Shown: positions 42,487 to 62,696 of the stretch, piece by piece | Numbering within the stretch: the stretch's first letter is position 1 | Layout of the letters: every line of letters begins with the position of its first letter | DNA from: Candidatus Omnitrophota bacterium | Lineage (GTDB): Bacteria; Omnitrophota; Gorgyraeia; Gygaellales; Profunditerraquicolaceae | Length of the DNA: 64,000 nt | Assembly (NCBI GenBank): GCA_016208765.1 | Contig: JACQXK010000009.1 | Span: 118,255 to 182,254 of the forward strand | Direction of reading: 5' to 3' | Notes under the pieces: generated by a model | The model's database searches: none | The model's input: only the letters and a program-made list of their open reading frames with translations | Told to the model about the DNA's origin: nothing | Position numbers and translations under genes: made by a program

Positions 42487-42493
42487 TTTTTAT

Positions 42494-43183: not shown

Positions 43184-43197
43184 CAGAAAGGTTCATC

Positions 43198-43449: not shown

Positions 43450-43452
43450 AAT

Positions 43453-44988: not shown

Positions 44989-44989
44989 G

Positions 44990-45645: not shown

Positions 45646-45646
45646 A

Positions 45647-46623: not shown

Positions 46624-47059
46624 CTCTTGCCTCCAATAAAATTGTAACTTAAATAATCGGGTTTGTCAAGGAGTATTTTCTACCAATTATTTTTTATTAA
46701 TCTAAAAATTGGCTATAAAATAGCTATTTTTATACATTTTTACTTATCATAACTTCTTGTATATCAATTAATTATGAAATAGAAAGCAAAGATAAGCCCC
46801 GTCCTACCAAAGTTTTTAAAATACACTTGACATTGGTAGAAAGATATGCTATACTTCAACTGGAGGAAAAAAAGATGGAACATTTAAAAGACTGGTTTAT
46901 GGTGTTAACAAGCAAGATGCACTTTCCGTTAATCGCCGGTTTAATGTTGTGTTTTAAAAAAGAGGAAAAAAGCACCTTTCTTGATTTAGGCGATTTAGGG
47001 GATAATGTGCCGCACGTTTTTTTTAAAAACCTGCATTAAGGCGCAGGGAGGGTGAGGCA

Positions 47060-47242
47060 ATGGCTAAGGTCCGGTGTAAAGATTGCGGTAAAACTGGGTA
47101 TACAGCATCACCGAAATACATCATCTGCTCCTGCGGAGGAAGGTTCAGGATAATCCCGGGAGCTTGCCGTATGCAGCGAGCTGAGCCGGATATTGTAAAT
47201 ACAGTATTAATGAGCTTCCAAATTTTATCGCACTATGCATGA
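47060..47242 (+). CDS. Small zinc-ribbon protein (60 aa)
   Basis: CKDCGK ... CSCGG four-Cys arrangement; GGAGGGTGAGG RBS. Confidence 0.25.
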   Translation: MAKVRCKDCGKTGYTASPKYIICSCGGRFRIIPGACRMQRAEPDIVNTVLMSFQILSHYA

Positions 47243-47499
47243 ATTAAAAACAATAACTAATAAAACTAATTTAACCGGTCAGGATCTGGATGCCTTAATT
47301 ATCAAGGTAAAACAAAATTACCGGCCGTACTTATGCAGAGAAAATGCGCCCGAGCATTGCGGCCTTTGTGTTTTATTTCCCGTATGTAAAGTTGTAAATC
47401 ACAATCTAATTTGCCCTTGGCTTACTTATGGAGGTAAGTAAGCTTTTTATTTAGGGTTAGATTTTCGGCAGCCACGGATTCCCTGTGAAAGGGGATTAG

Positions 47500-47548
47500 C
47501 CGGACTGATAACCAAACGGTCAGGTTTATCAGTCTGGCTTTTTATTTT
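47500..47548 (+). terminator. Rho-independent terminator
   Basis: Perfect 12-bp stem CCGGACTGATAA / TTATCAGTCTGG followed by CTTTTTATTTT. Confidence 0.55.
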
Positions 47549-47585
47549 GACCACTTATTAAAAAAGTTTAAAAAGGAGAAAACGG

Positions 47586-50500
47586 ATGTTGGACTGGCAG
47601 AAGAATAATAAGTTAAGGGCATTCATCAGGACTATCTGTGTTGTTTTAATAATAACCTTTCTTTCCTATGATTTATCTTGGGCAGGTGCAACCGAAGTAT
47701 TTAGTCCCAAAAACTGGTGTGCAGCGGCCAAGCCGAAAGATTTCACTTCAATCGAAATTCCCCAGGAACTCGGAGTAATTAAGGAATCCTATATTTCAAA
47801 ATCTAATCCGCATAAGCTGATTATCCATATTCAGGATGCCCATGCTAATGTTGAGGCGCAGGAAAATGAGGCAAAGCTCATCAGTTATCTTAAAGATAAA
47901 TACAGCGCGAATCTGGTTTCAGTGGAAGGCGGCTTTGGCGATTTTGACGCTAAATTCTTCCGGGAATTTCCCAAAGATAAAAAAGTAAGAAATAAGATTG
48001 CGAGATATTTTCTCTCTAAGTCTTTTATTTCCGGTACAGATTATCTTTTGATTACTGATAATTCGCCTCCGGCAGTTTACGGCGCAGAAGACAAAGATCT
48101 CTATTCAACGCACCTTGCTGTCTTTAAAGATAATCAGGAGATCGTTAGCGCTCTTAATCGATCCTTGGGTCTTTTGGACAACGCAGTTGAAGCCTTGAAA
48201 GATAAATTCTATTCCAGGGACTTAAGAGAACTGGATAAAAAAACAAGTGATTTTAGAGAAGGAAGGCTCGCTTTAGAGGATTACCTCTCTTACCTTAATA
48301 TTGCCTCAATTGTAAATAATCTGGACCTTGCCGGGTTTCCCAGTCTTTATCGTTTGATTACTTCCGGAGAGCTGGAAAGAAAGATTAACTTTGATAAAGC
48401 CGAAGCCGAACGCCAGGCATTGATTGAAACGCTTGCCAGGACGTTAGAGAGAAATGAACTCGAGGAATTAATAAAGGCCAGCCTTGATTTTAAATCCAGC
48501 AAGCTTAGTCCTGCTGATTATTATACCTATCTAGAAGGTTTAGCCAAAAAATCCGGCATCGCAGCCGGCTCCTATAATAATTTATTTACCTATATTAAGT
48601 ACATAAGTTTATCCAGCGGCTTGGATAATTCCCGGGTCTTTCCGGAAATAGACGAGCTGGCAGAAAGGCTCAAAGAGAAGTTAATTGCTTCTTCCGGACA
48701 GAAAGATATAGATAAACTCTGCCTGATGACGCGCATCCTTAAAGGCCTTGCGGAGATAAACCTTTCGCCCAAAGAATATGAATATTTTAAGAAAAGCAGG
48801 AATGATTTTACACGAAAAATTCTTGCCGGGCTTTTCGGGAGGTATCTGAATAATTCTTATGTTAAGAATCTGCCTGCGGATGATCAAATTTTATCTTTAG
48901 AGAAATTCTACAGCCTTGCCCATGACAGGGATAAGGCAATAGTCGAGAATTCTCTTAGCCGTTCAGACAGAGAATATAGCGCTAATTCTGTTATTCTTGT
49001 TGCCGGCGGTTTCCATACCCAGGGCATCACTTCAATCCTGAAAGAAAAAGATATCTCATATTTAGTTATCGCTCCAAATCTTAAAACAGCACAGGAAAAA
49101 GAATCAACCTATTTTTCTTTGCTCAAAGATAAGAGAATTCCTTTGCAGGATGTTTTAACTGATCCGGATACTTTGCAGATTATAAACAGTATTTCCGATC
49201 CCCAGGCTCGGAAGCTGCTGATTAACTACTGGGTTGCCCGGGCATCAAGGTATTATTCTTATGAAGATTTGAATGTCCAGTTAAACCGACTTGCTTTATC
49301 CGATGCCGATAAAACCGCAGTTAACCTTGCTTTAAATGAAATTCCCCATCAGGAAAACATGGTTGTTAAAGAATCTCCTGCCAGCCGCGGAAGCAGCCCT
49401 GTAAAGACAGAAAAGGATTTCTTCAGGGTTATTTCTTTTGTCTTAAGTTTTGGTTGGGCAGCTACAGCCTGGGCAGATTTTGGCCATGTCTGCCACAAAG
49501 CCATCTCAGGATTGCAGGATTTGGTTACTCAGCCGGTTGTGATTATTTCGGGGATCTGCGCCGGAATTGGTTATATGGTTTATCGTATCGCAAAAAAGAT
49601 ATTCAATAAAGGCCCGGCGCCAATGCAGAGGCAGCCAGAGGCAGTGCCTTTGGAAATTATGCCGCCAGAAGTATATGCAGCTAACCGGCCTATGCAAAAT
49701 ATTATGCCGCCAGTTCCGCATGTAATCAGCCGGCCAGCACAGAATAATCTGCCGGCTGCAGCCGGCGAAATCAGCGAAGAAATCCGCCGGTTAGGCGAAT
49801 TTATCTCTCAGGCTTCCAGCGAGACCCTCTCCAGGAGTTTCTGGCCGGCAGGGCCTTTTGAACTGCCGCTTCCCATGCCGATTACGGAATTTGAACGGCT
49901 GCCTTCTGACAGGGAAAAAATTGTCAGTATTCTGGAAAATATGCAGCGGATGATGGATTGGGCTGATGAAACAGCCCTTCATGATTTTGAAAAGGCAGTT
50001 GATAACGCCAGAGACCGGACAACACAAGAAGCCTTATCAGGTTTTGACAGGTTATCTAACACCCAGATTCATAATCTCGCCACCAGCGGGTATTTGGCAG
50101 AACTACAAAGAGAATTCCAGCAGGTCATTGATAATCAAGCCCAACTCATGATACATTCCTATACTCCAAGCGCCCAGGAACAAACCCTCTATGTGAGTGA
50201 AGAAATGGACCAGAGATATCCGCGTCTGCCCAGATATCTAAAATGGCTGCTTGGTAATAATCCCGGGCTTGAATCTGATCCTTTAATCAGGGATTTCCTT
50301 TATGCGGTTGAGATGAGGATGATGCGAATACCGCCTTTTCCTGAAATGGTCAGGGAATATTCCAGAGAGGCATTATACAAGTCGTTATATCTAAATCCTG
50401 AACTGGCAAAGCGCTTAATTTTGTATTTATCTAATGGTGTTTCAGAAGGTGCTGTTTTTGATGAAGCACGCACCCAGGAGCTAATCACGCAGGAGTTAGC

Positions 50501-53500
50501 TCCGGCACCCGAAGCCTTGCCTGAACCGGATATTAAAAAGATAACAGCAGAAAAGTCAGAACTCCGGTCATTGGAAGAGGCTTGCAACCAGCTAACGGCT
50601 AAATTGAACGAGCAGGAAGAATTAGCAAGAAAGATCGAGGCTGATCTTCGCGAATTAAACGAGAGTCTTGAAGAGGCGCGCAGGCAGAACGATGCAATTA
50701 TTATTGACGCTTTAAACCCGGCAGCCGCAGGCCTGTCTGCAAAATTAGAAAGAGAAAAAGCCTTACTTTTAAAACTCCAGCAGGAAAAAACCGAATACGA
50801 AGATAGAATTAAAAAAGTAAAAAAGGATTTAGGCTTGGATGAAGGCACGACACTTTATTCATCCAGTCCGCTTACTATGGGAGTTGTTGCGGTATTTGCG
50901 GCGATGTTCGGTATTCCTTTATACATCACAAAAAAGATTATAGGTAAATATTTTACTACTACCCTTGCTAAGGTATTCGGTATAGGTGCCGGTATCGCAA
51001 CGCTTATTCCGGGTTATTATATTTATTACGCAAGTCTGAAGCCGCAGATAGAGCAGGTTTTTGTTAATTTCCCGGAAGCTGATTGGGCGAGGCTTGCTTC
51101 TTTCGTAATTATCTGGCCGATTTCTGTAATTATCGGAACTCTCTTTGGAAAGATTGGCGAAGAAGTAATACATGAGGCGCTGTATGACAGGGCGAATTCT
51201 GCGTATAAGAAAAAAGATTTTGCCAAGGCAGCGGATTTAATTAATCGCGCGATAGAATTAAGAGAAAAGCCCGAGTATTATGCTTTGCTGGGAGACTGTA
51301 GATTTGAAGAGAAACGAATTAACGCGGCCATTGAAGCCTATGAGAGTGCTTCAAGATTAGGAAGCAAGAACAACCTGGCATACAACAGCCTTGGCGTGTT
51401 GTATGCACAAACAGGCAATGATGCAAAGGCCATTGAGAATTATAAACGTTCGTTAGAATTAAAGCCCGACAATGCAGTGGTTTTAACTAATTTGGGAAGG
51501 GTCCTGCATAGAAAGGGCCAGCTCTTAGAAGCGGCAAGGGCTTTGCAGCGCGCCCAGGAAATAAGACCTGATCTATCAGTTACCGAAGAATTAAATCAGA
51601 TCTTGCGCCAGGCAGCTGGTACTCCAAAACCGCAGCAGCCAAAAGACCTTGATTATATTAGGACAAAGAAAGCTTCACTTATAATTGACAGGGAAAAGTC
51701 TTGGCTAAACCAGCTTAATGATAAGGATGTTTTAGGGCCACTTATGTTCTTAGGCGCAGTTATAGGCTGGGTTTTGGGAGGCTTATTCTTACATTATGTC
51801 CCTTACGGCCATCATTGGAATTTAGGAACTTCAGCTGATCCTTCTTGGTTAGGAATTGCTGTTTGGACAGGAGAAATTATTGGTGCTCCGCTTGCAGGCG
51901 TAGGTTTAACTATGCCAATTATATGGATTAGCGATAAGATTACCACATTCATAAGGCAGGTTTACAGATATATAAAATTTCCCCATGATTACAAAATAAT
52001 GCAAAAGATTAATATAAAGCCTTCAGATGAACTTTCAGATGAGGATTTAAAACGGGCAGCACCTTTATTTGCCCGGCTTCCCAAGGATTATTTAGAGGAG
52101 ATATTCCGTTCCTGGGTTGAAGCCGGACATGATGAAAAAATACCGCGGCTTTTTAAATTCGACAACTGGAAGTCAAGCAAGATACAGGTTTATTCGGATA
52201 TCGGAGAATATAAAAAAGCAATACGCGCGGCTGTTGTTAAGTTTACGAATTCCCAGGCAGAGCAGTCCAGCCTGACAACAGAGATTGACAGCCAGAAGGA
52301 AAGGCTTGCGCAAAAGGGAATAGAGAATTCCATTAGATTGTTAAAAGACATCCTGCCGCAGGTAGCCGAGCATTCCCGTACAAGACAAGAGTTTATTTAC
52401 TGGCTTAATCTGCTTGTAGATTTGCCGGTAAATGTCTGGAATCAAGGTTCAAAGCGCGTTTTGGATGATTTTACCGATTTAAGAGAGTTTAAACAAGTTC
52501 AGGAAGCTGTCTTGAAAAAATTTGCTCACAATCCGCAGGAAGAAGAGAGGATTAACAAAGTAATAGAAAAGTTGAAATCAAAACTCAATGAAGACGGATT
52601 TTTTAGTCCCGCCGGAATTTTAAAGACAGCCTTAGATGAAGTGAGTAAAGTTTCTCGCGATATCAATGAATTTATATTCTGGGTGAATGAATTAACACAA
52701 TTTGACAAGAATCTTTTTTCTTCAGGTTTTGGATATTCAAGGAGGCAAACAGGAGACGCCTGTCTGCCGGCATTACAGAACCTGGTTGTATATGAAAGAA
52801 CAAAAGAAGAAGCCGCTAAGAAATTCTGCAAGGATGATAATGAAATCAAGACACTCTACCAGGCTGCTGATTCTTTAAAGAAACTATTAAGGGAACAATC
52901 TTTCGCCGGTAATTTCTCAATATTAAAAGATATTATCTTAAGAGTAGCCGAGGTCTCGCGAAGTTTAACGGAATATCTTGATTACATAGCTGTATTAAAA
53001 ACCTTTGATAAAAATATTTGGCGCAGTACACAGACAGTTTTACAGGCCCTTAACAACCATATTGACTATAAAAAGGCAAGAGAAAATGCAGCAGCAAAAT
53101 TCACGCATAATGATTCAAACCGGCAGAGATTCCTTTCAGATGTCGATGATTTAAGAAATCAGCTAGTGCAAAAAGGTTTTCCTCATGCCTCGGACTTGCT
53201 CAAAGACGTGCTTCCGGAATTAACCAAGACCTGTCGCTCCAGCGAAGAATTTGTTTATTGGCTCGGGGAATTAGTCGGGTTAAATCCCAGCGTATGGCAC
53301 GCAGGAGCCCATGCAGTAGTCAGCAGTTTTAATGATCTGGCTGGCTTTAAACAGGCTAAAGAAATGGCCCTTGATAAACTTTGTGCCAGCCGGCAGGAAA
53401 AAGAAGAATTAGCTAAAACAATTGACGGCCTTAAGGCAAAACTTGAAGGAAAAAGGCCCGGTTGCGCAGGCCTCTTCAAAGATCTCATTTTAGAGATTCT

Positions 53501-56500
53501 AAAAGATATTGATACGCTTTCTAACCCGTCTTACAGAAAGAATGACTTTATCTGGTGGCTGGCAATGTGCGTTAATTTTGAGCCGGCGGTCTGGCATGCC
53601 GGAATAACGCAGGTTTTAACAGGTTACCGGGAATTAAAAGATTATGTAAGAGAAAGGCGGGAATTATCCGCAAGATTCGCTGCTAATCCTGAAGAAGAAA
53701 AGCGGTTGTCAGGCGCTTGGGATAATTTGGATAAAGCTGCTAATTTTGCAAGGCCTGCTTCCATCAACCTGCTTAAGGGTGCGTTAGATAAGTCAGCTCA
53801 AATTTCCGCTAACCCAAGAGAATTTGTTTTTTGGGTGGGGACTTTATCCGAATTAAACACTGAAGTGCTGGATATATTCTGCCGCGACATCGAAACCGTC
53901 TTTAGCTATTACAAAGAAAAAGGCAAATCACGCGACTTTAACCATTTACCCGCAGCTCTAAACCAGTACTATAAAACTTATCATCAGATAATCCTTATTA
54001 CACTTGATCTCTTGGATATATTAACTGAGCCGGGGGTTGATATTAATGCCAGGGTTGAAAAAGCTTCCCGTTATATAGTTGAGCAGAAAATTGTCAGATT
54101 GGGCGCGCCCCCTAATTTGATCGGATTAAAAGATGTTGTCAGTTTTGACCAGCTGCTGGGCATTGTCGGCGAAGGCGGTTTTGGCGGTTTATTAAATTAT
54201 CACTGGCAGGAGGAAACGACATCTTATGATGATTACGGAGGTTATGGCGAATCATCTTATTATGACACTAATCTTCAGCCTATCCGCCTTATTGTTCCCA
54301 AAATGGGCAGGGATGGAATGTATTCGTTTTGGGAAGCGCAGCAGCCGCCTTATTATCGGCAGTTTCAGGAGGAGACAAGAGGCTTAGCTCCGGGCTTCCG
54401 CAGGCCGGGAGAAAAATTCAGGGTGGCGTATGATGACAGAGTATTAAACTGGAGCAAAGAAGATATTTTTCAGGTTATGCCTATTGCAAGCGATGTAGAG
54501 GCATTGCAGCAGTTGATCCGGTATTTGCGTATGGAATGGCCGAATCTTTACGAAAGCTTTATTGAGCCTAAAAGAGACTTGATTAAAGATAGATTCTTAG
54601 AAGAATTCGTTACCCCGGATACAGTCTTAAAAATGTCGCAGCAGCTTTTAGGTAAAGTGCAAAACTGGAAGTTTAGCGATGACGAAAGAACAGTATTCCT
54701 GATTAAGATTATGGAGATATTTGCTTTTTCGGAAACCGCAGATTTAAGGACAAGAATTAACAATGCTTCAGAAGATTTTAATAAACTAAGGCTGGTAGCA
54801 GAGTATTGGGAAAAAGTTTTAGAGTTAATTTTGAAGCATAATTGGCTGCAGGAAAAATCCAAATTCTATAAAAGTGTTGCCAAGATAATTAAGCAAAGGA
54901 CAGCTACAATTAATGATAAGTTAGGTAACGGCTCAGAAGGGGTGATGCAGTTTTATCTTTCCGGAGGAACGGTTGCCGACTTCTTCAGGGGTATTGTCAG
55001 CTGCGATTGTACCAAGCCCGGAGGACAGGCTTTTCAAAATACCCTTGGCACAGTGGTTGATCCTGGATTTCTCTTATTCAAAATTATTGAGAGCGGACAG
55101 TGGGCAGGAAATATTTATTCGGTTATTTTCAAAACAAAGGATGGTAAATTCGCGTTATTCGTAGATGTATTCCAGATTAATCTCGGGCATCCCTTGGTTG
55201 CGCAGGGCGATACCTGGAATAAGAAAAGGGAAAGGTTTATTGCGGCTTTCTTCCAGGAATTTAAGTCGTATCTTGCCTCTCAGGGTTTTGATTATTTGAT
55301 TTTTGCCAATACCCATTCTTCTCAGAAGATCGGTGAATATATCCATAGAGAACTGGTTAAGCAATCAGGCAGGTCCTCAGCAGAATCCTTAAGTTTGAAA
55401 AAGCCCGGAGGGCTGGCGCATTTAGGCGAAGGAGCCTTGCCTGTGGAATTTGTACAGGGAGTGGGTAATATTGCGCCGGGTTTTCAGAGTGTTTCAGGAT
55501 ATAAGATTGCTTTGGATAAAAATACTGCGCAAAGCGCGCAGCAGAGAAAGAAAAAGCTCGATGCTCTCACTGTTTTATTAAAAGAAGCAGCTAATGAAGA
55601 ATCTCGCTTATCCGGAGTTTTAAGACAGGCGCAAAAAGAATTTAATCAGCTTAATGCGAGAGGCAGGGAAGCCGCTAATTCCGGAAAGAACTCTGTTGCG
55701 GAGGCGCTTAGAAAAGCTTCCGAACAGAAAACTTTGGAAATCAATAAAGTCAATTATGAATTACAGGGGATCAGGCAGAGAATGCAGCAGGCCCAACTGG
55801 AAGCCGGGCAGATTATGGGAGCTCTTGGTTTACCGCAGGCGCGTCAAGACAGAACATCTTCCGCTGTCATCGGAAAATTTCTGTTGGCACTTCCAGTTGT
55901 AGGAGCTCTGAATTTATTTCTTGCCCGGTCTGCGCAGGCTCAAGAGCCTTCGTTTATCGAAGAGTTTGTCCGTAACCCGATAGGTTTCTTTTTAACTTTT
56001 TTAGGAGGCTTGGGAATTCTTTGGTTCATTATAACAAAGCTTTTTTCGGAGAAAGAAGAAACACTTCCTTATTACGACAGGAGTTTTCCCAGGCGTCCAA
56101 TAATTGAAGAATACCGCCTGCCGGAAGATGTAAGCGATCAATTAGACAGGGTCTTGGAAAAAACCTCTCCTAATGTTGCAAGCTTAATTCCTAAGAAAAT
56201 AGATATCAGATTGCCTCATATGTCCGGCATAAGTCCTAATCAGGCGGTTAAGGCGCTAAGATTTATTTTTACCAAGTTAATAAAGCATAACTCTATATTG
56301 GATTTCCTCAAAGGGCAGGATTTCTATAAGAAATTTAAGGATAGAACAAGTGAGCTGGGTTTAGCCGGAGATTTTGACCAAGCACAGCATAGTTACTTTT
56401 TTACCGTAAAGAGAGAAAAAGACCCTGATGTCCAATATGAGCTTAGTTTGTCAGAACGCAATGCCGATAGTATTTTAAGCGGGATTGCCAGCGGTGATTG

Positions 56501-59500
56501 CACATCCATAAACAGCCATGCTTTTTCTAACACTATTCCGCAGTTTATGCTTGATCCGGGATTTTTAGTTTTTAAGCTTTTGCAGGATGGTAAGTGGGTG
56601 GGCAATGTTTATACAATTGTTGCGCAAAAAGACAACAAACCGATTCTCATTATTGATGCTGTGCAATTGCCTGTTTTAGGCAGGGAGTGGCCGGCTCCGG
56701 CTGTTGAATTAGCAGACAAAATTGTCGAGAAAATAATTGAATACGCGCAAGAGCAGGGTTTCTCCGCGGTTTTAATGAGCAGTTTTATTTCTAATTTTAG
56801 CGCTGTGTATAAGCATTTCAGCCTGCAATATCCGGTGAAAGCGGCAAGGATAGAGAAAGTCGGAGGTTTTGAACATTTAAAAGCCTTGGGCCTTTGGGAT
56901 GATTATGTATTGTGCAATGAGTACTTGGAAACTTTCAGTCCGCAGTGGAATTATTCTTCAAAGACAAGAGTCAACCCGAATAATCCGGAACAAACATTGT
57001 TATTAAGGAATATTTGGGAGAAGGCCCGGTCTTTAGATGAAACTAAAGAAGATCCTGTTCCTGCTTCAAGCCCGATCCAGTCTGTTTTGAATAAATTAAA
57101 GATCGCGGTTCTTATTGGAATAGTGTCTTTATTTATACTTGCTATGCCGCATAAGGCAAATGCGGCTAAATTTGCGATAACCGGCACAACACCGCCCCAG
57201 GTTGTAGCTGTAGTGGAAAAGGGAGATACTGCCTGGAAAATTGCCGGACAAGCATACAAAGAAGTCGAAGGATTGGGTAAAGGCAGTTATTCTGCTAACT
57301 TGCAATGGAAAAGAATTTACGAAGCTAATCCGCAGCTGCATCACCGTCCGAATAATACTCTTGCGCCAATGTACGAAAACGGCAGGCATTACGAAGATGA
57401 CAAGCATATTGTAGTTAATATCAGGCCGGGTGACAGGCTGGTTATTCCGGGACAAGTAAATTACGAGACAACAGGATTACAGGCGCCTGCCTTACAAAAG
57501 CCGGCTGTTCCGGAAGCAGGAGTTTCTCAACCGCCAGTCAATGTCCAACAAGCAGAACAGGAATTTTCCAAACTGAAAGAGCAAACCCAGACCGCGCAGG
57601 CTGATTTAGAGAGGCTGCAAAAACAGAGGGATGAACTTAACCGCCAGATTCAAGAACTACAAAACCAGCTTAATGATGCAAGAGAGCAGTCTCAAGCTTT
57701 GCAACCCATAGAAGCAAGGCGCAAAGCTTTGGAAGACGAAGCAAAGCAGCTTGAAGAGAAGCGGGCTAGGTATGCTCAGGAAATCGTTGATCTTGAGAAA
57801 CAATACCGCGACGCTCAGGATAATCTAGCTAAAGTTATTTCTGAAAGAGAAAAAGCCCGAGCGGAGCTGGAACAGCTTAAGCAGCAAGTTCCCCAGAAAC
57901 AGGCTGAGTTAAATAGGATTAGAGAAGAAAACGAAAGACTGGAGGCGCAAAGAAAACAGATTCAGGATAATCTATCCAGGCTGCAAAACCAAAGAGGTGA
58001 TTTGCAAAAGTCAATTGACCAATTGAATCAAGAAAGAGCTGAATTGCAGAGGGATTTGGAAAATCTCCGGCAGCAGATAGTTGAAGCCAAGAAAATATTA
58101 GATGAAGCAAAGCAAAAAATCCAGCCTGTCTGGAAAAATGTTTGGGATGGTTTATCGCTTCCGGCAAGAATAGGGCTCATTCTTTTATTTATAACCGGCT
58201 TAGGAGCAATCGCCGCAGGGATCATTTTGATAAAGAGATGGCATAAATTCAAAGAATTAGAAAATAAAATAAACCGGTTAAGAGAAGAAGCCGAAGACTT
58301 AGATGGCCAGCTTACGCCTTTACGCGCAGAGAAGGATGATCTTGTTAAGATGAAAGAGGATACGCTTGCAGAAAAAGTTAGAGTTGAGAAAGAAGCAAGG
58401 AAGGTATCCCAACAGCAGACCCAGCTTGAAGCTGATAGAGGCATACTTACGCAAGAATCTCAGGATTTGCAAAAACAAAAGGAAGAAATAGAAAAACAAA
58501 AACAAGGCTTAGCTGAATTAGATAAACAAAAACAAACAGTAAAGGATGAAATTACGCAATTAGAAACTCAACGCGACGGCCTTAATCAAGCATTAGCTCA
58601 AGCGCAGGAAGAGGTCAAGAAGGTTCAGTCTCAGACGCAAACGCAGATTAATGCCTTAGATGATCAGTTGCAGGAGGCAAGGGAAAAATATGAAACCAGC
58701 TTTGCGGAGATAGAGGAGCAGAAATCTAAAACTCAGGGTGAATTACAGGGTTTGCTTTCTGAAAAAACCAAGGCAGAAGGAGAATTGAATGCTTTGGCCG
58801 AAAAGACAGCTTTATTAGCAGAGACACAAGGAACCTTGCTTGAGGGATTGCAGGATTTAGAAAAACAGCAAAAAGCAACTCAGGAAAATATTGAGCTTTT
58901 AAGACAGGAAGAAGCCGGATTAAAGGATAGAGCTGAGAAGTTAAGAAAAGTCAGGGAGATTAAGCCGGAAGTAGAGGGTTTGGCAGCCAGGGCAAGAGCT
59001 ATTTCTCAGGAAGTTAATTCTTTGTATTTAGGAGAAGAAGGCAAGGCACGCGGAGTAGACGCTTTTGTCAGTCTAGTGCAGACAAAGAGCCATAGCGGAG
59101 ATGAACATCAAATCAGAGAAGAATTAAAAGGAATTTTGACGTCTCTGGGAGGAAAAATAATTTTAGAATGCGGAACAGCTAATAAACAATGCGGGTTAAA
59201 GAAAAACGGCGGTATTGTTCCGCAAAATCTGGTAGTGGAATTTCCGGGTACAGGCAGATTTAGTAAGGAGCCCGGATTTATTATTAATGCCCATATGGAT
59301 ACGGTTACTCACAGCACCCCAGAGCAGATGGATGTTTCAGATAGCGCAAAAGGATTTTTTCATAAAATAAACGGTTCGTTTGGTGCTGATGATAAAGCCG
59401 GGCTGCTGGTTCAATTAGAGGCTTTGCGTTTTATGAAAGACAATTATTGGGATAAAGGATACGACCACAGAAGGATCGTGTTTATCATTACTGCAGAAGA

Positions 59501-61478
59501 AGAGCCTCATCCGGAAAGGGCAGGTTTTGGCAGAGGCGCAGAGCATCTGGCAGTCAGTCATCCGGGATTATTTAAAAATATCCTTTTCACATTAACAAGC
59601 GACGGACCGTTGGAAATGCCGAATTATGACCCTGACCGCTCATTTGTCGCGGTGGTCCCAGAAACATTAAAAAACCGCCAGCCCTATGCTTCGATATTGG
59701 AAACTCTTAGCAATATTGCCGGAAGAAAAGGCCGCGTCTTGGAAACAACAGAAGTTGGATTGGGGATGGGGGATTTTGCCCATTTCCCTGCCTCTGCAAA
59801 GGCTGAGATGCATATCCGGTCTCCTTACGAAGGTAACCACAGCAACGAGAGAGTGAAAATTGCAAACTTAATCGATCATATTGACTTATGGATAGCGATA
59901 TTATCGAGATTTGCTTGCGACATTCAGGATACCAAGACATCCGGCATAGCAAGAAAAACATCAGGAAATGAACCGGTAAGGGTACTTCGTGAATTTATTG
60001 TAAGTGAAGATAGCAGCCTTGTCTTGGCTGATGGCGCTAAACCGGGATTATACGAAATAACCGGAATCTTATCTGCTAAGCTGGATAAAGCAATAGCCGA
60101 GATTATGATAAGTCCTTTAGGATACAAACGCGGTCATGCGATTAAAAAAATCACTGTTGTTCAGGGCAATAACCGTTTAGCTGAGGCAGATACCATTAAC
60201 GGAAATATCATCTTGGATATCGATGCTTTTGAATCCGATAATTTATTAGCCTTAGAAATGGAACATGAGTTTTTGCATATTAAATTAGATAAAGAAAAGC
60301 AGATTCCGGAAGCCATAGAAGAAATTTCTGCTCTTCTTTTTGAGACAGTGCATTTTCTGTCGTTGGATCAGGCTAGGAGGCAGGAAATTATTGATGTAAT
60401 GGAAGCTGATAATGATATTGATGAACAGGGGTTTGTCAAAATACTTGAGAAGTTTGACATCAGCACTTTAGATCTCCAAATTTTAGTAGAAGACCTAATT
60501 AGTTATGTTAGAGATAGCGGTGTCTATCCAGCCCGGATAGCAAGTTACTTAGAAGGTAAAACAGCTAATCAAATACAAAATGAATTATATTATTCCATAA
60601 AGAACTATCCCGAGGATTTATTTATTGTAATGATAGACAGGCTGATTAGCATTGGCAAATCAGCCCGGGGTTTAATGGAAAATATTCTTCTGTTTCATAA
60701 TAGTATTGGTTTAGAAAAATATCCGGATATTATGGGCAAAAAATTAGTTATGTCTGATCCTTTTGCCAAAGTATTTTATGGTTTAGGCCAAGACGAAAGC
60801 TTAATCTTATCTCCGCAAGCCTTGTCAGTCTTAAATACTTTGATTTTAGATTATAACGGATTGACTTTGGATATCGATATAGATACTTTAATTGATGTTT
60901 CTACCGGTATGCCTAAATTAAAAGGCCTTGGTTTTAAAGAGGCGCTTGCTTCTTTATATCAGGCACAGGAGAAGAAAGAAATTCCTGCTAATTTACATGT
61001 CAGGTTGATTAATCTTAATCCTGATTTAAACAGAGCAAAAATCATTAAAACTTTAGGCTTAAGCGATGCTTTACTAAAAGGAATGGTGGAGATTCCGGAT
61101 ATTTCTCAGGATTATTTAACCAAAGGCCTTGAGATATATCTTGTTCCTGGATCCATCAGGATTGTCTATGAAGCTAATGCCAAATACTGGGGCGAAAAAA
61201 TAGACGTACTGGTGCAAAAGGGCAAAGAAACCGAAATTCTCTCCAGTCTCGGTTTAATCGTTGCCGCTCTTTCCAAGGAGCCGAAATTCTATCAAAGCCT
61301 TCCGCAGGAATTGAAAGAATATATATCCGCTTCAACCGATGATAAAGGAAATATTGTCTTAGACGACCAGAATAAGATTAAGCAGTTGATCTTTAAGCCG
61401 ATTGAGAGGACAAAGGTAGATACGCAGTATTTAGACCGTCTGGATAAAGCGAATAAAGAATTGGAAGGTATGGTATAA
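47586..61478 (+). CDS. Giant multidomain surface/membrane protein (4630 aa)
   Basis: Single uninterrupted 13,893-nt ORF with AAAGGAG RBS. Contains N-terminal TM helix, several internal TM clusters, TPR repeats (~51190-51610), six tandem ~100-aa repeats (~52250-53900), a duplicated GDCT...DPGFLxFK...GxWxGNxY domain (~54930-55270 and ~56440-56780), a LysM-like domain (~57200-57460), ~500 aa of Q/E/K-rich coiled coil (~57540-58990), and an M20/M28-like metallopeptidase region (HMDTVTH, GADDKAG, TAEEEPH; ~59200-59900). Confidence 0.8.
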   Translation: MLDWQKNNKLRAFIRTICVVLIITFLSYDLSWAGATEVFSPKNWCAAAKPKDFTSIEIPQELGVIKESYISKSNPHKLIIHIQDAHANVEAQENEAKLISYLKDKYSANLVSVEGGFGDFDAKFFREFPKDKKVRNKIARYFLSKSFISGTDYLLITDNSPPAVYGAEDKDLYSTHLAVFKDNQEIVSALNRSLGLLDNAVEALKDKFYSRDLRELDKKTSDFREGRLALEDYLSYLNIASIVNNLDLAGFPSLYRLITSGELERKINFDKAEAERQALIETLARTLERNELEELIKASLDFKSSKLSPADYYTYLEGLAKKSGIAAGSYNNLFTYIKYISLSSGLDNSRVFPEIDELAERLKEKLIASSGQKDIDKLCLMTRILKGLAEINLSPKEYEYFKKSRNDFTRKILAGLFGRYLNNSYVKNLPADDQILSLEKFYSLAHDRDKAIVENSLSRSDREYSANSVILVAGGFHTQGITSILKEKDISYLVIAPNLKTAQEKESTYFSLLKDKRIPLQDVLTDPDTLQIINSISDPQARKLLINYWVARASRYYSYEDLNVQLNRLALSDADKTAVNLALNEIPHQENMVVKESPASRGSSPVKTEKDFFRVISFVLSFGWAATAWADFGHVCHKAISGLQDLVTQPVVIISGICAGIGYMVYRIAKKIFNKGPAPMQRQPEAVPLEIMPPEVYAANRPMQNIMPPVPHVISRPAQNNLPAAAGEISEEIRRLGEFISQASSETLSRSFWPAGPFELPLPMPITEFERLPSDREKIVSILENMQRMMDWADETALHDFEKAVDNARDRTTQEALSGFDRLSNTQIHNLATSGYLAELQREFQQVIDNQAQLMIHSYTPSAQEQTLYVSEEMDQRYPRLPRYLKWLLGNNPGLESDPLIRDFLYAVEMRMMRIPPFPEMVREYSREALYKSLYLNPELAKRLILYLSNGVSEGAVFDEARTQELITQELAPAPEALPEPDIKKITAEKSELRSLEEACNQLTAKLNEQEELARKIEADLRELNESLEEARRQNDAIIIDALNPAAAGLSAKLEREKALLLKLQQEKTEYEDRIKKVKKDLGLDEGTTLYSSSPLTMGVVAVFAAMFGIPLYITKKIIGKYFTTTLAKVFGIGAGIATLIPGYYIYYASLKPQIEQVFVNFPEADWARLASFVIIWPISVIIGTLFGKIGEEVIHEALYDRANSAYKKKDFAKAADLINRAIELREKPEYYALLGDCRFEEKRINAAIEAYESASRLGSKNNLAYNSLGVLYAQTGNDAKAIENYKRSLELKPDNAVVLTNLGRVLHRKGQLLEAARALQRAQEIRPDLSVTEELNQILRQAAGTPKPQQPKDLDYIRTKKASLIIDREKSWLNQLNDKDVLGPLMFLGAVIGWVLGGLFLHYVPYGHHWNLGTSADPSWLGIAVWTGEIIGAPLAGVGLTMPIIWISDKITTFIRQVYRYIKFPHDYKIMQKINIKPSDELSDEDLKRAAPLFARLPKDYLEEIFRSWVEAGHDEKIPRLFKFDNWKSSKIQVYSDIGEYKKAIRAAVVKFTNSQAEQSSLTTEIDSQKERLAQKGIENSIRLLKDILPQVAEHSRTRQEFIYWLNLLVDLPVNVWNQGSKRVLDDFTDLREFKQVQEAVLKKFAHNPQEEERINKVIEKLKSKLNEDGFFSPAGILKTALDEVSKVSRDINEFIFWVNELTQFDKNLFSSGFGYSRRQTGDACLPALQNLVVYERTKEEAAKKFCKDDNEIKTLYQAADSLKKLLREQSFAGNFSILKDIILRVAEVSRSLTEYLDYIAVLKTFDKNIWRSTQTVLQALNNHIDYKKARENAAAKFTHNDSNRQRFLSDVDDLRNQLVQKGFPHASDLLKDVLPELTKTCRSSEEFVYWLGELVGLNPSVWHAGAHAVVSSFNDLAGFKQAKEMALDKLCASRQEKEELAKTIDGLKAKLEGKRPGCAGLFKDLILEILKDIDTLSNPSYRKNDFIWWLAMCVNFEPAVWHAGITQVLTGYRELKDYVRERRELSARFAANPEEEKRLSGAWDNLDKAANFARPASINLLKGALDKSAQISANPREFVFWVGTLSELNTEVLDIFCRDIETVFSYYKEKGKSRDFNHLPAALNQYYKTYHQIILITLDLLDILTEPGVDINARVEKASRYIVEQKIVRLGAPPNLIGLKDVVSFDQLLGIVGEGGFGGLLNYHWQEETTSYDDYGGYGESSYYDTNLQPIRLIVPKMGRDGMYSFWEAQQPPYYRQFQEETRGLAPGFRRPGEKFRVAYDDRVLNWSKEDIFQVMPIASDVEALQQLIRYLRMEWPNLYESFIEPKRDLIKDRFLEEFVTPDTVLKMSQQLLGKVQNWKFSDDERTVFLIKIMEIFAFSETADLRTRINNASEDFNKLRLVAEYWEKVLELILKHNWLQEKSKFYKSVAKIIKQRTATINDKLGNGSEGVMQFYLSGGTVADFFRGIVSCDCTKPGGQAFQNTLGTVVDPGFLLFKIIESGQWAGNIYSVIFKTKDGKFALFVDVFQINLGHPLVAQGDTWNKKRERFIAAFFQEFKSYLASQGFDYLIFANTHSSQKIGEYIHRELVKQSGRSSAESLSLKKPGGLAHLGEGALPVEFVQGVGNIAPGFQSVSGYKIALDKNTAQSAQQRKKKLDALTVLLKEAANEESRLSGVLRQAQKEFNQLNARGREAANSGKNSVAEALRKASEQKTLEINKVNYELQGIRQRMQQAQLEAGQIMGALGLPQARQDRTSSAVIGKFLLALPVVGALNLFLARSAQAQEPSFIEEFVRNPIGFFLTFLGGLGILWFIITKLFSEKEETLPYYDRSFPRRPIIEEYRLPEDVSDQLDRVLEKTSPNVASLIPKKIDIRLPHMSGISPNQAVKALRFIFTKLIKHNSILDFLKGQDFYKKFKDRTSELGLAGDFDQAQHSYFFTVKREKDPDVQYELSLSERNADSILSGIASGDCTSINSHAFSNTIPQFMLDPGFLVFKLLQDGKWVGNVYTIVAQKDNKPILIIDAVQLPVLGREWPAPAVELADKIVEKIIEYAQEQGFSAVLMSSFISNFSAVYKHFSLQYPVKAARIEKVGGFEHLKALGLWDDYVLCNEYLETFSPQWNYSSKTRVNPNNPEQTLLLRNIWEKARSLDETKEDPVPASSPIQSVLNKLKIAVLIGIVSLFILAMPHKANAAKFAITGTTPPQVVAVVEKGDTAWKIAGQAYKEVEGLGKGSYSANLQWKRIYEANPQLHHRPNNTLAPMYENGRHYEDDKHIVVNIRPGDRLVIPGQVNYETTGLQAPALQKPAVPEAGVSQPPVNVQQAEQEFSKLKEQTQTAQADLERLQKQRDELNRQIQELQNQLNDAREQSQALQPIEARRKALEDEAKQLEEKRARYAQEIVDLEKQYRDAQDNLAKVISEREKARAELEQLKQQVPQKQAELNRIREENERLEAQRKQIQDNLSRLQNQRGDLQKSIDQLNQERAELQRDLENLRQQIVEAKKILDEAKQKIQPVWKNVWDGLSLPARIGLILLFITGLGAIAAGIILIKRWHKFKELENKINRLREEAEDLDGQLTPLRAEKDDLVKMKEDTLAEKVRVEKEARKVSQQQTQLEADRGILTQESQDLQKQKEEIEKQKQGLAELDKQKQTVKDEITQLETQRDGLNQALAQAQEEVKKVQSQTQTQINALDDQLQEAREKYETSFAEIEEQKSKTQGELQGLLSEKTKAEGELNALAEKTALLAETQGTLLEGLQDLEKQQKATQENIELLRQEEAGLKDRAEKLRKVREIKPEVEGLAARARAISQEVNSLYLGEEGKARGVDAFVSLVQTKSHSGDEHQIREELKGILTSLGGKIILECGTANKQCGLKKNGGIVPQNLVVEFPGTGRFSKEPGFIINAHMDTVTHSTPEQMDVSDSAKGFFHKINGSFGADDKAGLLVQLEALRFMKDNYWDKGYDHRRIVFIITAEEEPHPERAGFGRGAEHLAVSHPGLFKNILFTLTSDGPLEMPNYDPDRSFVAVVPETLKNRQPYASILETLSNIAGRKGRVLETTEVGLGMGDFAHFPASAKAEMHIRSPYEGNHSNERVKIANLIDHIDLWIAILSRFACDIQDTKTSGIARKTSGNEPVRVLREFIVSEDSSLVLADGAKPGLYEITGILSAKLDKAIAEIMISPLGYKRGHAIKKITVVQGNNRLAEADTINGNIILDIDAFESDNLLALEMEHEFLHIKLDKEKQIPEAIEEISALLFETVHFLSLDQARRQEIIDVMEADNDIDEQGFVKILEKFDISTLDLQILVEDLISYVRDSGVYPARIASYLEGKTANQIQNELYYSIKNYPEDLFIVMIDRLISIGKSARGLMENILLFHNSIGLEKYPDIMGKKLVMSDPFAKVFYGLGQDESLILSPQALSVLNTLILDYNGLTLDIDIDTLIDVSTGMPKLKGLGFKEALASLYQAQEKKEIPANLHVRLINLNPDLNRAKIIKTLGLSDALLKGMVEIPDISQDYLTKGLEIYLVPGSIRIVYEANAKYWGEKIDVLVQKGKETEILSSLGLIVAALSKEPKFYQSLPQELKEYISASTDDKGNIVLDDQNKIKQLIFKPIERTKVDTQYLDRLDKANKELEGMV

Positions 61479-62696
61479 ATGCGCAAATTTGTATTTTGTT
61501 TGTATATAATTATTTTCCTTTCGTTGGGTATAGTTTATGCTATGGACTCAGGCGAGGATGATGCCAGCTCAGTTTATCTCTCCTCAATTGCCGTCAGCAG
61601 GACAGACGACGGATTTAATCATCTAAGATTCAAGCTTAAAGCCAGAAAATCAGGATTCTTTGAACCGATTATTGACATAAACAAGTCAGCGCAGAAGTCC
61701 CTGGAGTATTTCTTTATCGGTTTAGCTCTGCCTGATAGTGCCTTTTGGGTAAATCTTAATCCGCATGAGCCGGAAAGATTAATCGATCAGGACTTAGCTG
61801 ATACTGATTTAGGCAGAATAATGCTCAGTGCGGATTTAAGGTTAAAAGAGGATTTTGCGGAGTGCCTTAATCCGCAGACATCTCCAGTCGGCAGAGAATT
61901 CTGGAAGCGGGTTTACGAAAAAGCAAAAGAACTGGGCTATACAGATAAAATCCCTTTTACGAACAAACTCTGGATAATTCCCGATAAAGCCTTGGCAGTT
62001 GAATCCAGTAATCAGCTTTCGCTGGTTAATTGCAGCCTTAAAGTAGGATTTGGGCCCGTAGGCTCTTTACCATTAGATAATTTTATTTTGGGCCTGATGA
62101 AAGAGTTAATCGTTCCTTATATAGAGAAAAGAGTGAATGAATCTTATGCCTATGCGGATTTAAGGGAGGTCTATCATGCCTTAATCCTGAGCCGTTGGTA
62201 CAGGCAGAAATTTGGCGTTTTTCGGGGAAACCTTTGTCAAGCTGTCGGTTTTGAAACTCTTAGCGAAACAAACCAGGATTATCCCATTGAGAAAAATGAG
62301 GTTTATCAGGATTACCTGAATTCTTTTAAGAAGGGCAGGTATTCTTTTACGGAAAGAATACCTGAGTTAGACATGTTCGGAACGATTATCATTACGAGGA
62401 ATTATTTTAGCGGCGGAGTTGATTTTAAACGCATTGATCTTAGTTTAACCGATAAGCAAGGAGAGTCTGCGCAGGGAGAATTAACTTATACCTGCGATTT
62501 ATTTATTCCTGAAGGAATACAACATCCTTTAGCGTATGCAAAAGCAAATTTAGGACTGCTTAAAGGAGATATTTCAGGGATTGTTTTAGCGAAAAATTTA
62601 CCGGCAATCGTTCCGTTAAATCATCCTTCAGAGGATAGTCTGCGGAGTCTCGATTCCTGCGGAAAAATGGAGAGACTGGTTTTAAGCAAGCTTTAA
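61479..62696 (+). CDS. Hypothetical secreted protein (405 aa), translationally coupled to the giant gene
   Basis: Signal peptide MRKFVFCLYIIIFLSLGIVYA; ATG overlaps the giant-gene stop (TAAATG). Confidence 0.4.
   Translation: MRKFVFCLYIIIFLSLGIVYAMDSGEDDASSVYLSSIAVSRTDDGFNHLRFKLKARKSGFFEPIIDINKSAQKSLEYFFIGLALPDSAFWVNLNPHEPERLIDQDLADTDLGRIMLSADLRLKEDFAECLNPQTSPVGREFWKRVYEKAKELGYTDKIPFTNKLWIIPDKALAVESSNQLSLVNCSLKVGFGPVGSLPLDNFILGLMKELIVPYIEKRVNESYAYADLREVYHALILSRWYRQKFGVFRGNLCQAVGFETLSETNQDYPIEKNEVYQDYLNSFKKGRYSFTERIPELDMFGTIIITRNYFSGGVDFKRIDLSLTDKQGESAQGELTYTCDLFIPEGIQHPLAYAKANLGLLKGDISGIVLAKNLPAIVPLNHPSEDSLRSLDSCGKMERLVLSKL

Follow-up and report, generated by a model that had tools for sequence, protein, structure and literature searches.

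The forward-strand open reading frame at positions 47586–61478 of the 64-kb stretch of DNA that we analysed (the window) encodes a protein of 4,630 residues. We read it, with a probability of about 0.55, as one multi-module polypeptide threaded through the inner membrane, and as a small representative of the long, transmembrane (TM)-rich, multi-enzyme proteins already known from the Omnitrophota. From the N-terminus, it begins with a signal anchor, a head domain resembling the TIKI/TraB/erythromycin esterase (Ere) hydrolases, a helical module, three TM helices, a TPR region and two TM helices. The middle holds six helical repeats, a conserved core, a first GNAT-fold domain, two TM helices, a second GNAT-fold domain and a further TM helix, and the chain ends with a LysM-like segment, a coiled coil, a TM helix, a second coiled coil, an M20/M28-type peptidase and a C-terminal module. 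The features are listed below; a slash in a sequence motif marks a candidate signal peptidase cut.

47586–61478, +: whole ORF, 4,630 aa, NCBI MBI4706921.1
47619–47675, +: TM1, signal-peptide-like, aa 12–30, with a K/R-rich N-terminus, then SWA/GA
47748–49355, +: head domain, aa ~55–590, TIKI/TraB/ChaN/Ere-like fold, predicted periplasmic
49428–49583, +: TM hairpin, aa 615–633 and 646–666, absent in ortholog P0020
49788–50855, +: conserved helical module with short coiled coil, aa ~735–1090, predicted periplasmic
50871–51155, +: cluster of three TM helices, aa 1096–1190
51183–51605, +: TPR repeats, aa ~1200–1340, predicted cytoplasmic
51729–51932, +: TM hairpin, aa 1382–1449, kept in orthologs
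52167–53867, +: six divergent helical repeats of ~95 aa, aa 1528–2094, no known family matched
53883–54899, +: best-conserved core, aa ~2100–2438, 62% identity to the homolog at locus L004
54900–55535, +: GNAT-fold domain 1, aa ~2439–2650, 'DCT' motif at 2474
55563–55835, +: short coiled coil, aa ~2660–2750
55866–56042, +: signal-peptide-like segment ending ARSAQA/QEP and a second TM helix, aa 2761–2819
56043–57035, +: helical region and GNAT-fold domain 2, aa 2820–3150, 'DCT' at 2971
57090–57152, +: signal-peptide-like TM helix, aa 3169–3189, ending HKANA/AKF, A-x-A kept in orthologs
57198–57455, +: LysM-like segment with large insertions, aa ~3205–3290, predicted periplasmic
57540–58169, +: coiled-coil arm 1, aa ~3319–3528, predicted periplasmic
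58170–58232, +: strongest TM helix (TM12), aa 3529–3549, with 6 K/R in the next 15 residues
58233–59030, +: coiled-coil arm 2, aa ~3550–3815, predicted cytoplasmic
59055–59915, +: MH-clan (M20/M28-type) dinuclear metallopeptidase domain, aa 3824–4110, no lid domain
59925–60575, +: module with HExxH at aa 4227–4231, a tentative zincin-like motif, common to homolog P0063 only
60741–61475, +: conserved C-terminal module, aa ~4386–4630, 65% identity at locus L008
61479–62696, +: coupled downstream gene P0002, 405 aa, signal peptide, Omnitrophota-specific family
62966–63001, +: strong hairpin with T-run terminator, where the transcription unit probably ends

The reading frame is single and uninterrupted, as an earlier note on this DNA had claimed. 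It starts with ATG, with AAGGAG 7 nt upstream, and runs for 4,630 codons without an internal stop, a run expected by chance with a probability of ~1e-141 at this base composition. The longest ORF in the other frames over the same interval is only 182 aa, and frame 1 ranked highest for RNY and G1 bias in all nine 1.5-kb segments of the ORF. Tandem DNA repeats able to cause assembly collapse were not found within it, and no tRNA or Rfam element was detected in the 64-kb window. NCBI annotates the product (MBI4706921.1) as an "M20/M25/M40 family metallo-hydrolase", and gives Omnitrophota as the source name for it and for its homologs. The earlier description of the DNA as AT-rich holds only moderately (36–44% GC), and its claim that an ORF of this size is rare does not apply to this phylum, where ORFs above 20 kb are common (PMC10066038).

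The sequence comes from a bin of a short-read metagenome and the L004 homolog was called as two ORFs, both of which would suit an assembly or annotation artefact, with a collapsed frameshift or a chimeric assembly having joined several genes. Against this, the same 4,630-aa protein is present at 100% match in the NCBI MAG contig (220,517 bp) and in a separate Logan assembly (run SRR12113402, 33,150-bp contig), orthologs at 39–55% identity are colinear over all internal junctions, the coding bias is even along the ORF, and DNA repeats are absent from it. The L004 homolog, the only one seen split, carries a single-base frameshift within unbroken homology. Because the identical protein occurs in two assemblies and the orthologs are colinear, a frameshift or chimeric origin is effectively excluded. 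We also considered the two L004 ORFs as a sign of gene fusion and rejected this; the homology passes from one frame to the other within a single codon, 30 nt ahead of the stop of the first ORF, which points to a 1-nt frameshift.

Colinear orthologs of 3,700–6,500 aa occur in other Omnitrophota. Ortholog P0020 (4,676 aa) spans residues 655–3973 of the giant protein at 39–51% identity, P0019 spans residues 1241–4122 at 52–55%, and a 6,541-aa protein at loci L008/L011 spans residues 2818–4630. A word-index search with aa 3820–4630 gave zero matches; the search was not sensitive enough here, since both the peptidase and the C-terminal module yielded homologs in later comparisons. A sequence search of the PDB gave no significant match for the head, aa 670–1090, aa 2138–3165, aa 4140–4630 or P0002, and Pfam scans of ten sub-segments added nothing beyond a marginal LysM and a weak GNAT hint. 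Our fold assignments cover about half of the protein, leaving aa 735–1090, 1528–2438 and 4114–4630 outside. The earlier, sequence-only note mentioned neither the TIKI-like head nor the two GNAT-fold domains nor the six repeats.

The many TM clusters noted previously were borne out, with about 12 hydrophobic helices and an N-terminal signal-like anchor. Topology was modelled from hydropathy and the positive-inside rule rather than with a trained predictor, and published work reports that TM predictions on proteins of this length differ between tools. The flanks of the helices contain 28 K/R residues on the predicted inside versus 17 on the predicted outside. The first hairpin (aa 615–666) breaks the positive-inside rule, and without it the counts become 26 and 9; as this hairpin is missing in P0020, the membrane parity is the same there. 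Parity is broken between the GNAT-fold domains, where P0020, P0024 and P0025 have one TM helix and the giant protein has two. TM12 is followed by 5–6 K/R residues in three of the four orthologs checked. The TM helix ahead of the LysM-like segment resembles a signal peptide, in keeping with this model. From the model and from domain logic we infer that the head and the LysM-like segment are periplasmic and that the GNAT-fold domains and the peptidase are on the cytoplasmic side, which would hold ~63% of the chain; the peptidase is predicted to lie opposite the LysM-like segment because of the strongly positive flank after the preceding TM helix. The window contains a secretin gene, which argues for a two-membrane envelope. 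No outer-membrane export element or beta-barrel was detected in the giant protein in Pfam and NCBIfam scans.

The N-terminal 600 residues are, judging from an AlphaFold2 (AF2) model and residue conservation, a hydrolase domain of TIKI/TraB/Ere-like fold with its catalytic His/acid motif intact. The model (pLDDT 76.7) has an alpha/beta core with a parallel sheet and a large helical insert at aa ~170–460 (a bundle of ~290 aa). Residues D84, H86, E114, R448 and GGFH477 are near-invariant; across 15 homologs, D84-x-H86, E114 and the His of GGFH (H477) are either invariant or conserved to at least 90%, so that the head keeps its catalytic residues across divergent proteins. These residues fit the 2His/2Glu catalytic motif described for the TIKI/TraB/ChaN/Ere superfamily (PMC6254334), and E114 lies 28 residues past H86, as E113 lies past H85 in Bcr135. 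The TraB, ChaN, Ere and GumN Pfam families gave no match to the head at E ≤10 or to seven homologs at E ≤1.

Between the head and the LysM-like segment, the helical module at aa ~735–1090 has a conserved core (aa 754–1046) and matched no known family. The TPR region reported earlier is clear. The six ~95-aa repeats share 22–35% identity between copies. GNAT-fold domains 1 and 2 are paralogs (30% identity, E 5e-17), and the unit formed by the helical region and domain 2 also exists as free-standing proteins of 400–520 aa without signal peptides. Both divergent domains have the GNAT fold; no Pfam GNAT family scored above its cut-off, the best being Acetyltransf_CG (E 0.094, 13.3 bits versus a cut-off of 30), and the free-standing homologs matched no Pfam family. 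In GNAT enzymes the acyl-CoA binding loop has the motif Q/R-x-x-G-x-G/A after strand 4. When the alignment was inspected by eye, no such motif was seen in the loop after 'IDAxQ'. In view of this lack of an obvious CoA-binding loop, acyl-CoA use is unproven and the argument for a cytoplasmic location of the GNAT-fold domains is weaker.

The LysM domain claimed earlier is marginal. PF01476 scored 21.9 bits against a cut-off of 20.9 for the isolated segment alone, over profile positions 2–29 of 43; there was no match when the full-length protein was scanned with Pfam, and the corresponding region of three orthologs remained below threshold at 16–17.6 bits. The long coiled coil described with it exists, in the form of two ~210-aa arms rather than one ~500-aa spacer, and these arms flank the strongest TM helix of the protein.

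The M20/M28-like peptidase with HMDTV, GADDKAG and EEE motifs stood up well. PF01546 scored 28.3 bits with the full protein and 34.5 bits with the segment (cut-off 24.6), and the metal ligands and general base (H3903, D3905, D3935/3936, E3972, E3973, D4006 and H4085) are all conserved in eight of eight aligned homologs at 25–52% identity. The domain aligns with the PepT-like structures 3rza and 3gb0. The M20 lid/dimerisation domain is absent (no M20_dimer Pfam match), only 79 residues separate D4006 from H4085, and M28 was matched weakly by P0020 and also by the L008 ortholog. M28-type peptidases are often secreted. The predicted peptidase resembles the PepT-type tripeptidases, which are exopeptidases for short peptides, rather than wall hydrolases. 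The HExxH at aa 4227 was considered as a second peptidase and kept as tentative only, because just one distant homolog has it and the closest orthologs lack it. The module at aa ~4386–4630 always forms the extreme C-terminus in homologs.

The stop codon of the giant gene abuts the next start (TAAATG at 61476–61481), so the start/stop coupling to a signal-peptide protein noted earlier is upheld, and this neighbour also proves to be a conserved partner. A P0002 homolog lies directly 3′ of a large multi-domain gene in all seven loci examined, and P0002-like partners also follow TIM-GAPDH-PGK fusion proteins in other genomes. P0002 matched no Pfam family; it is 35% identical (E 4e-60) to aa 64–424 of P0020, in which a P0002-like domain is fused N-terminally and replaces the head. 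The genes conserved around the homologs encode HisKA_7TM kinases, receiver-domain proteins and the P0002-like protein.

On the single-chain reading, ~12 TM helices would weave the polypeptide through the inner membrane, placing the head, the aa 735–1090 module, the LysM-like segment and coiled-coil arm 1 in the periplasm, and the TPR region, the repeats, both GNAT-fold domains, coiled-coil arm 2, the peptidase and the C-terminal module in the cytoplasm. The LysM-like part may bind the protein to the peptidoglycan of the same cell, and the substrate of the head may be a peptide or ester in the periplasm. The most likely role would be to keep enzymes for peptide and acyl processing at the envelope beside a periplasmic capture or processing module, possibly under the control of the two-component genes that always flank the giant gene.

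The earlier note favoured a cell-surface or cell-contact machine, which in an epibiotic or predatory bacterium would bind a partner's wall through LysM and degrade or remodel it with the metallopeptidase. Omnitrophota giants have been proposed to serve in prey adhesion and wall digestion (bioRxiv 10.1101/2023.11.21.568195; PMC10066038), a LysM-like segment and a predicted periplasmic TIKI-like hydrolase are present, and secretin and T2SS E/F genes lie 25–30 kb upstream. With the enzymes predicted to be cytoplasmic and no outer-membrane export element detected, however, this reading is poorly supported. The peptidase is of an exopeptidase type for short peptides and would be on the other side of the membrane from the LysM-like segment, as would both GNAT-fold domains; Pfam and NCBIfam revealed neither a wall-lytic domain (glycosidase, amidase, NlpC/P60) nor a beta-barrel, a dockerin, an adhesin repeat, SecA_DEAD or C39, and nothing was found that could take any part over the outer membrane. 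We therefore consider a surface machine improbable. Far less probable still is that the giant protein is a cargo or surface component of a conjugative type IV secretion element that the window encodes in its first half. F-type genes (TraC, TraD-like, TraE, TrbI, TraG_N and TraH) are present at 4–28 kb, and the ortholog at L008/L011 has genes for a resolvase and for phage replication downstream of it. However, ~20 kb of unrelated genes separate the element from the giant gene and the conserved neighbours of the homologs are not T4SS genes; on the synteny of the homolog loci, the association was rejected.

Unlikely, though somewhat less so than a surface machine, is a membrane-inserted polyprotein from which signal peptidase I, cutting after three signal-peptide-like segments (SWA/G at aa ~33, AQA/Q at ~2784 and ANA/A at ~3192), would free three or four chains. 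One of these, a free stalk of ~31 nm made up of LysM and coiled coil, would be held by TM12 and could reach the peptidoglycan. An A-x-A motif follows three of the six predicted N-in to C-out helices (TM1, TM9 and TM11) and none of the six helices of opposite orientation. At the first internal site the sequences are AQA/Q, AQA/Q, ALA/Q and AHA/Q in the giant protein, P0019, P0021 and P0023, respectively, and at the second ANA/A, ANA/A, AHA/A and TKA/A in the giant protein, P0020, P0019 and P0030. Cleavage would also resolve the geometry of a 210-aa coil that cannot extend while both its ends are held in the membrane, and head, enzymes and tail are separate genes in other genomes (L010). On the other hand, so short a motif easily arises by chance, the first internal signal-like segment is absent in P0020 and P0024, and internal processing by signal peptidase is unusual for bacterial proteins. 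An extension of this idea, which we judge equally doubtful, is an undescribed, Omnitrophota-wide 'bookended' system. It would open with a periplasmic TIKI-like hydrolase or, interchangeably, a P0002-like domain and close with a secreted P0002-like protein; between them would lie a membrane-threaded polypeptide, or a string of genes, for variable cytoplasmic enzymes (peptidase and GNAT-fold here; TIM-GAPDH-PGK, PFK, UGPase and enolase elsewhere). Cutting at the conserved internal A-x-A motifs would yield separate membrane-tethered enzymes. If this were true, Omnitrophota giants would be envelope-tethered metabolic assembly lines and not predation weapons.

Should the topology model behind the preferred single-chain reading be wrong, the protein would be one more poorly understood long Omnitrophota protein. 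If it is right, at least one family may have to be pictured differently, with the recognisable catalytic modules except the head facing the cytoplasm and only the TIKI-like head and the LysM-like, coiled-coil tether facing the periplasm. At 4,630 aa the protein is small enough for domain-by-domain dissection, and the conserved head and the conserved, sometimes fused, secreted downstream partner offer handles for classifying and testing such proteins.

Individual modules both resemble and depart from known families. The predicted head has the acidic-x-His, Glu (+28) and G-x-x-His elements of the 2His/2Glu set of the TIKI/TraB-PrgY/ChaN/Ere superfamily and, like PrgY, would lie outside the membrane behind an N-terminal anchor. 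It differs in having no sequence match to any superfamily Pfam, in its inserted helical bundle, in having Asp where the superfamily motif has Glu as the first acidic residue, and in being the N-terminal module of large modular proteins. The GNAT-fold domains differ from the GNAT superfamily in lacking both an above-threshold Pfam match and a recognisable CoA pyrophosphate-binding loop, and in having invariant motifs particular to their own family (D-C, W-x-G, D-x-x-Q, S-x-x-x-S-N and G-x-x-H-L). The LysM-like segment shares the KGDTxWxIA and PGDxLxIPG signature of LysM proteins and a position directly behind a signal-peptide-like segment; it differs in ~40 extra inserted residues, a score at threshold and a profile alignment over only the first third to two-thirds. 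The peptidase shares the H-x-D, D, E-E, D, H ligands of PepT-like tripeptidases and M28 aminopeptidases (MEROPS clan MH), with PF01546 above cut-off and 3rza and 3gb0 as its nearest solved structures. It differs from M20 proper in having no lid/dimerisation domain and an M28-like last-ligand spacing of 79 aa, and from clan MH peptidases in being embedded in a membrane protein behind a 260-aa coiled coil.

The whole protein is best compared with the long, inner-membrane-anchored multi-enzyme proteins described in Omnitrophota (bioRxiv 10.64898/2026.06.07.730766), and specifically with the 'multi-enzyme metabolic cluster' class (Nielsen & Lui 2026) and the Archaeovorins (West-Roberts et al. 2023). 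It comes from the same phylum and likewise has a signal peptide with TM helices (one per ~390 aa, versus ~1 per 370 in the most TM-dense reported giant), several unrelated enzyme domains (GNAT, peptidase) carried on one chain together with TPR and repeat scaffolds, a sequence that is largely unannotated, and a contig that also holds secretin and T2SS genes. At 4,630 aa and 13.9 kb it falls below the 10-kAA, 20-kb and 30-kAA thresholds; giants have been defined as at least 10 kAA (Nielsen & Lui), as ORFs above 20 kb (Seymour et al.) or as genes above 90 kb (West-Roberts et al.). In the last of these studies most giants carry a SecA_DEAD and/or an N-terminal C39 peptidase domain, whereas Pfam and NCBIfam found neither of these here, nor a dockerin, glycosyltransferase or glycosidase domain. 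Neither giant-protein preprint mentions a TIKI-like head, a LysM-like segment, an MH-clan peptidase or a conserved tail gene. The giant gene belongs to a small, new family among the long, membrane-anchored multi-enzyme proteins already known from Omnitrophota.

The giant is encoded by a single ORF:

47586-61478, + strand: giant ORF, ATG start, 4,630 sense codons

The earlier note's description of this ORF as uninterrupted agrees with its coordinates, its coding bias and the absence of long alternative frames: frame 1 had the highest RNY and G1 codon bias in all 1.5-kb windows along it, nothing above 182 aa was found in the other reading frames across it, and at this composition a stop-free run of 4,630 codons has a chance of ∼1e-141. 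The GC content of the window is 36-44%, and no DNA tandem repeats were found in the ORF. A ribosome-binding site (AAGGAG) lies 7 nt upstream of the ATG. In the region upstream of the gene (46827-47585), a near-consensus sigma-70-like promoter (46827-46855) precedes two small ORFs, one at 46875-47039 and a Cys-rich, zinc-ribbon-like one at 47060-47242, and two hairpin and T-run terminators (47419-47444 and 47518-47539) stand immediately 5′ of the ribosome-binding site. The paired terminators could be a read-through control.

The protein exactly matches NCBI MBI4706921.1, annotated "M20/M25/M40 family metallo-hydrolase", which is encoded on a 220,517-bp MAG contig of Candidatus Omnitrophota; an independently built Logan contig (run SRR12113402) encodes an identical 4,630-aa protein. 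Searched exhaustively with HMMER, aa 2138-3165 gave 69 cluster representatives, many very long, among them P0019 (3,720 aa), P0020 (4,676), P0023 (4,873), P0024 (6,509), P0025 (5,012), P0033 (6,788) and P0063 (7,557). BLAST matches were colinear across the giant's internal junctions, with P0020 matching aa 655-3973, P0019 aa 1241-4122 and a 6,541-aa protein on contigs L008 and L011 aa 2818-4630. With the identical product in two assemblies and orthologs colinear over the junctions, the frameshift or chimera artefact that the earlier note had allowed for is effectively excluded as the origin of the ORF. The homolog on contig L004 is split into two called ORFs. There, homology moves to another frame from one residue to the next, 30 nt ahead of the stop of the first ORF; this indicates a single-base frameshift (L004 6470-6511), and a gene boundary was rejected because homology continues across the frame jump. 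The frameshift reflects an error of assembly or else a genuine pseudogene.

The modules are arranged along the giant as follows:

aa 1-600: head, TIKI/TraB/erythromycin-esterase-like
aa ∼1200-1340: TPR
aa 1528-2094: six ∼95-aa repeats
aa 2100-2438: conserved core
aa ∼2439-2650: GNAT-fold domain 1
aa 2820-3150: helical region and GNAT-fold domain 2
aa ∼3205-3290: LysM-like segment
aa 3319-3528: coiled-coil arm 1
aa 3529-3549: most hydrophobic helix of the giant
aa 3543-3752: coiled-coil arm 2
aa 3824-4110: M20/M28-type peptidase
aa 4227: HExxH module, common only to the giant and P0063
aa 4386-4630: C-terminal module, always at the extreme C-terminus of homologs (65% identity in L008)

The TPR proposed from the sequence is clear, and the M20/M28-like peptidase was likewise borne out, with PF01546 scores of 28.3 and 34.5 bits (cut-off 24.6) and alignment to the PepT-like structures 3rza and 3gb0 via HMDTV, GADDKAG and EE. 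Its metal ligands (H3903, D3905, D3935/6, E3972, E3973, D4006 and H4085) are all kept in eight of eight homologs (25-52% identity). The last two are only 79 residues apart, an M28-like spacing, and the M20 lid domain is therefore missing. The suggested ∼500-aa coiled coil is present by heptad periodicity, but as two arms split by the hydrophobic helix. The LysM assignment is marginal: the segment exceeded the cut-off (21.9 versus 20.9 bits) only in a separate scan of aa 3186-3300, with the alignment limited to profile positions 2-29 of 43, and three orthologs scored below threshold (16-17.6 bits). Both flanking motifs, KGDxxWxIA and PGDxLxIPG, are conserved. The divergent GNAT-fold 'DCT' domain is also N-terminal in two metagenome proteins (P0064 and P0071), the rest of which is ankyrin repeats.

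The head had no sequence-level match in Pfam. In every complete protein among its 14 homologs it is N-terminal, after a signal peptide or anchor; the proteins carrying it are large and from Omnitrophota or Elusimicrobiota, and the downstream enzymes vary (phosphofructokinase, UGPase, epimerase, amylase). Residues D84-x-H86, E114 and H477 show little or no variation among the homologs. They correspond to the 2His/2Glu catalytic set of the TIKI superfamily and have the His-to-Glu spacing of Bcr135 (PMC6254334).

Hydropathy gave ∼12 TM helices. A topology model combining hydropathy with the positive-inside rule, from an N-in start, placed 28 flanking K/R inside versus 17 outside, or 26 versus 9 without the first hairpin, which breaks the rule. 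Predicted to be periplasmic (∼30% of the chain) are the head, aa 667-1095 and the LysM-like segment with coiled-coil arm 1; the TPR, repeats, conserved core, both GNAT-fold domains, arm 2, peptidase and C-terminal modules (∼63%) are predicted to be cytoplasmic. Five observations were counted in support: in P0020, the secreted N-terminal domain leads into the aa 754-1046 module with no TM in between; the TM preceding the LysM-like segment is signal-peptide-like; of four orthologs checked, three have 5-6 K/R after TM12; free-standing GNAT-like homologs have no signal peptide; and a secretin gene in the window points to an outer membrane, while no element able to cross one was found in the giant. 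No simple model fits the hydrophobic region between the GNAT-fold domains:

giant, aa 2756-2822: two helices
P0020, aa 2545-2577: one helix
P0024, aa 2157-2181: one helix
P0025, aa 2087-2119: one helix

Published TM predictions on long Omnitrophota proteins are known to be unstable (bioRxiv 10.1101/2023.11.21.568195).

The best reading of the giant is an inner-membrane-threaded scaffold. It would hold cytoplasmic peptide- and acyl-processing enzymes beside a periplasmic hydrolase head and peptidoglycan tether, and would act together with a secreted partner. The earlier note instead suggested a machine for the cell surface or cell-cell contact, possibly wall-degrading, a less likely reading that lacks support, as the peptidase is of the wrong type and lies on the predicted cytoplasmic side, and the giant has no module for wall lysis or export. 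More speculatively, signal peptidase may cleave after three signal-peptide-like segments, each of which precedes an A-x-A motif that orthologs share, and so divide the chain into separate pieces tethered to the membrane; the LysM and coiled-coil stalk would then be able to extend ∼31 nm.

The candidate partner of the scaffold is P0002 (405 aa), whose gene is start/stop-coupled to the giant's, the TAA directly adjoining its ATG, and which has the signal peptide noted earlier. Its family has 82 representatives, all from Omnitrophota, and no Pfam family was found for it. P0020 carries a P0002-like domain in place of the head (35% identity, E 4e-60), and the gene right after P0020 opens with a second copy. 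A P0002-like gene follows a very large multi-domain gene in seven of seven loci examined. Four of the preceding genes (window, L005, L008 and L011) encode M20/M28 giants, and the other three encode fusions of triose-phosphate isomerase, GAPDH and phosphoglycerate kinase (2,067-2,097 aa):

L009, 3744-9989: TIM-GAPDH-PGK fusion
L010, 1362-7655: TIM-GAPDH-PGK fusion
L012, 3691-9894: TIM-GAPDH-PGK fusion

The P0002-like gene follows the fusion immediately in L009 and L012 and after a further 736-aa gene in L010, with a PilZ gene next in all three. Beyond these, still downstream, come a GH2 glycosidase and, in L010 and L012, a sugar ABC transporter. The gene string of L010 begins with the head as a gene of its own.

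Genes for a HisKA_7TM kinase and receiver-domain proteins lie beside the giant in the window and beside its homologs in L003 and L006; L004 and L008 have receiver-domain genes only, the short L004 contig showing just these and Cupin_2 genes. In the window (40393-46036), genes for five stand-alone receiver-domain proteins and one small PP-binding carrier protein come after the kinase gene, and similar kinase-plus-receiver arrays lie upstream of the homologs in L003 and L006. Just upstream of the array (37705-40402), genes for a ketoacyl synthase and an FAD amine-oxidase-like protein adjoin a carrier-protein gene. Elsewhere in the window, an F-type type IV secretion (conjugation) set (4396-28018: TraG_N, TraD-like coupling protein, TraE, CagX/TraK-like, TrbI, TraC, TraH) is interleaved with:

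15873-17411: secretin
20032-21672: T2SS/T4P ATPase
21673-22878: T2SS-F platform protein

Long, TM-rich, multi-enzyme proteins anchored in the inner membrane are already known in Omnitrophota (bioRxiv 10.64898/2026.06.07.730766; bioRxiv 10.1101/2023.11.21.568195; PMC10066038). Compared with these, the giant falls below every length threshold used and has no SecA_DEAD, C39 or dockerin domains. The two preprints make no mention of its head, its combination of LysM-like segment and peptidase, or the tail gene, and we therefore regard it as a new family within a known kind. Being small, it is a member on which the topology and the function of these proteins can be tested.
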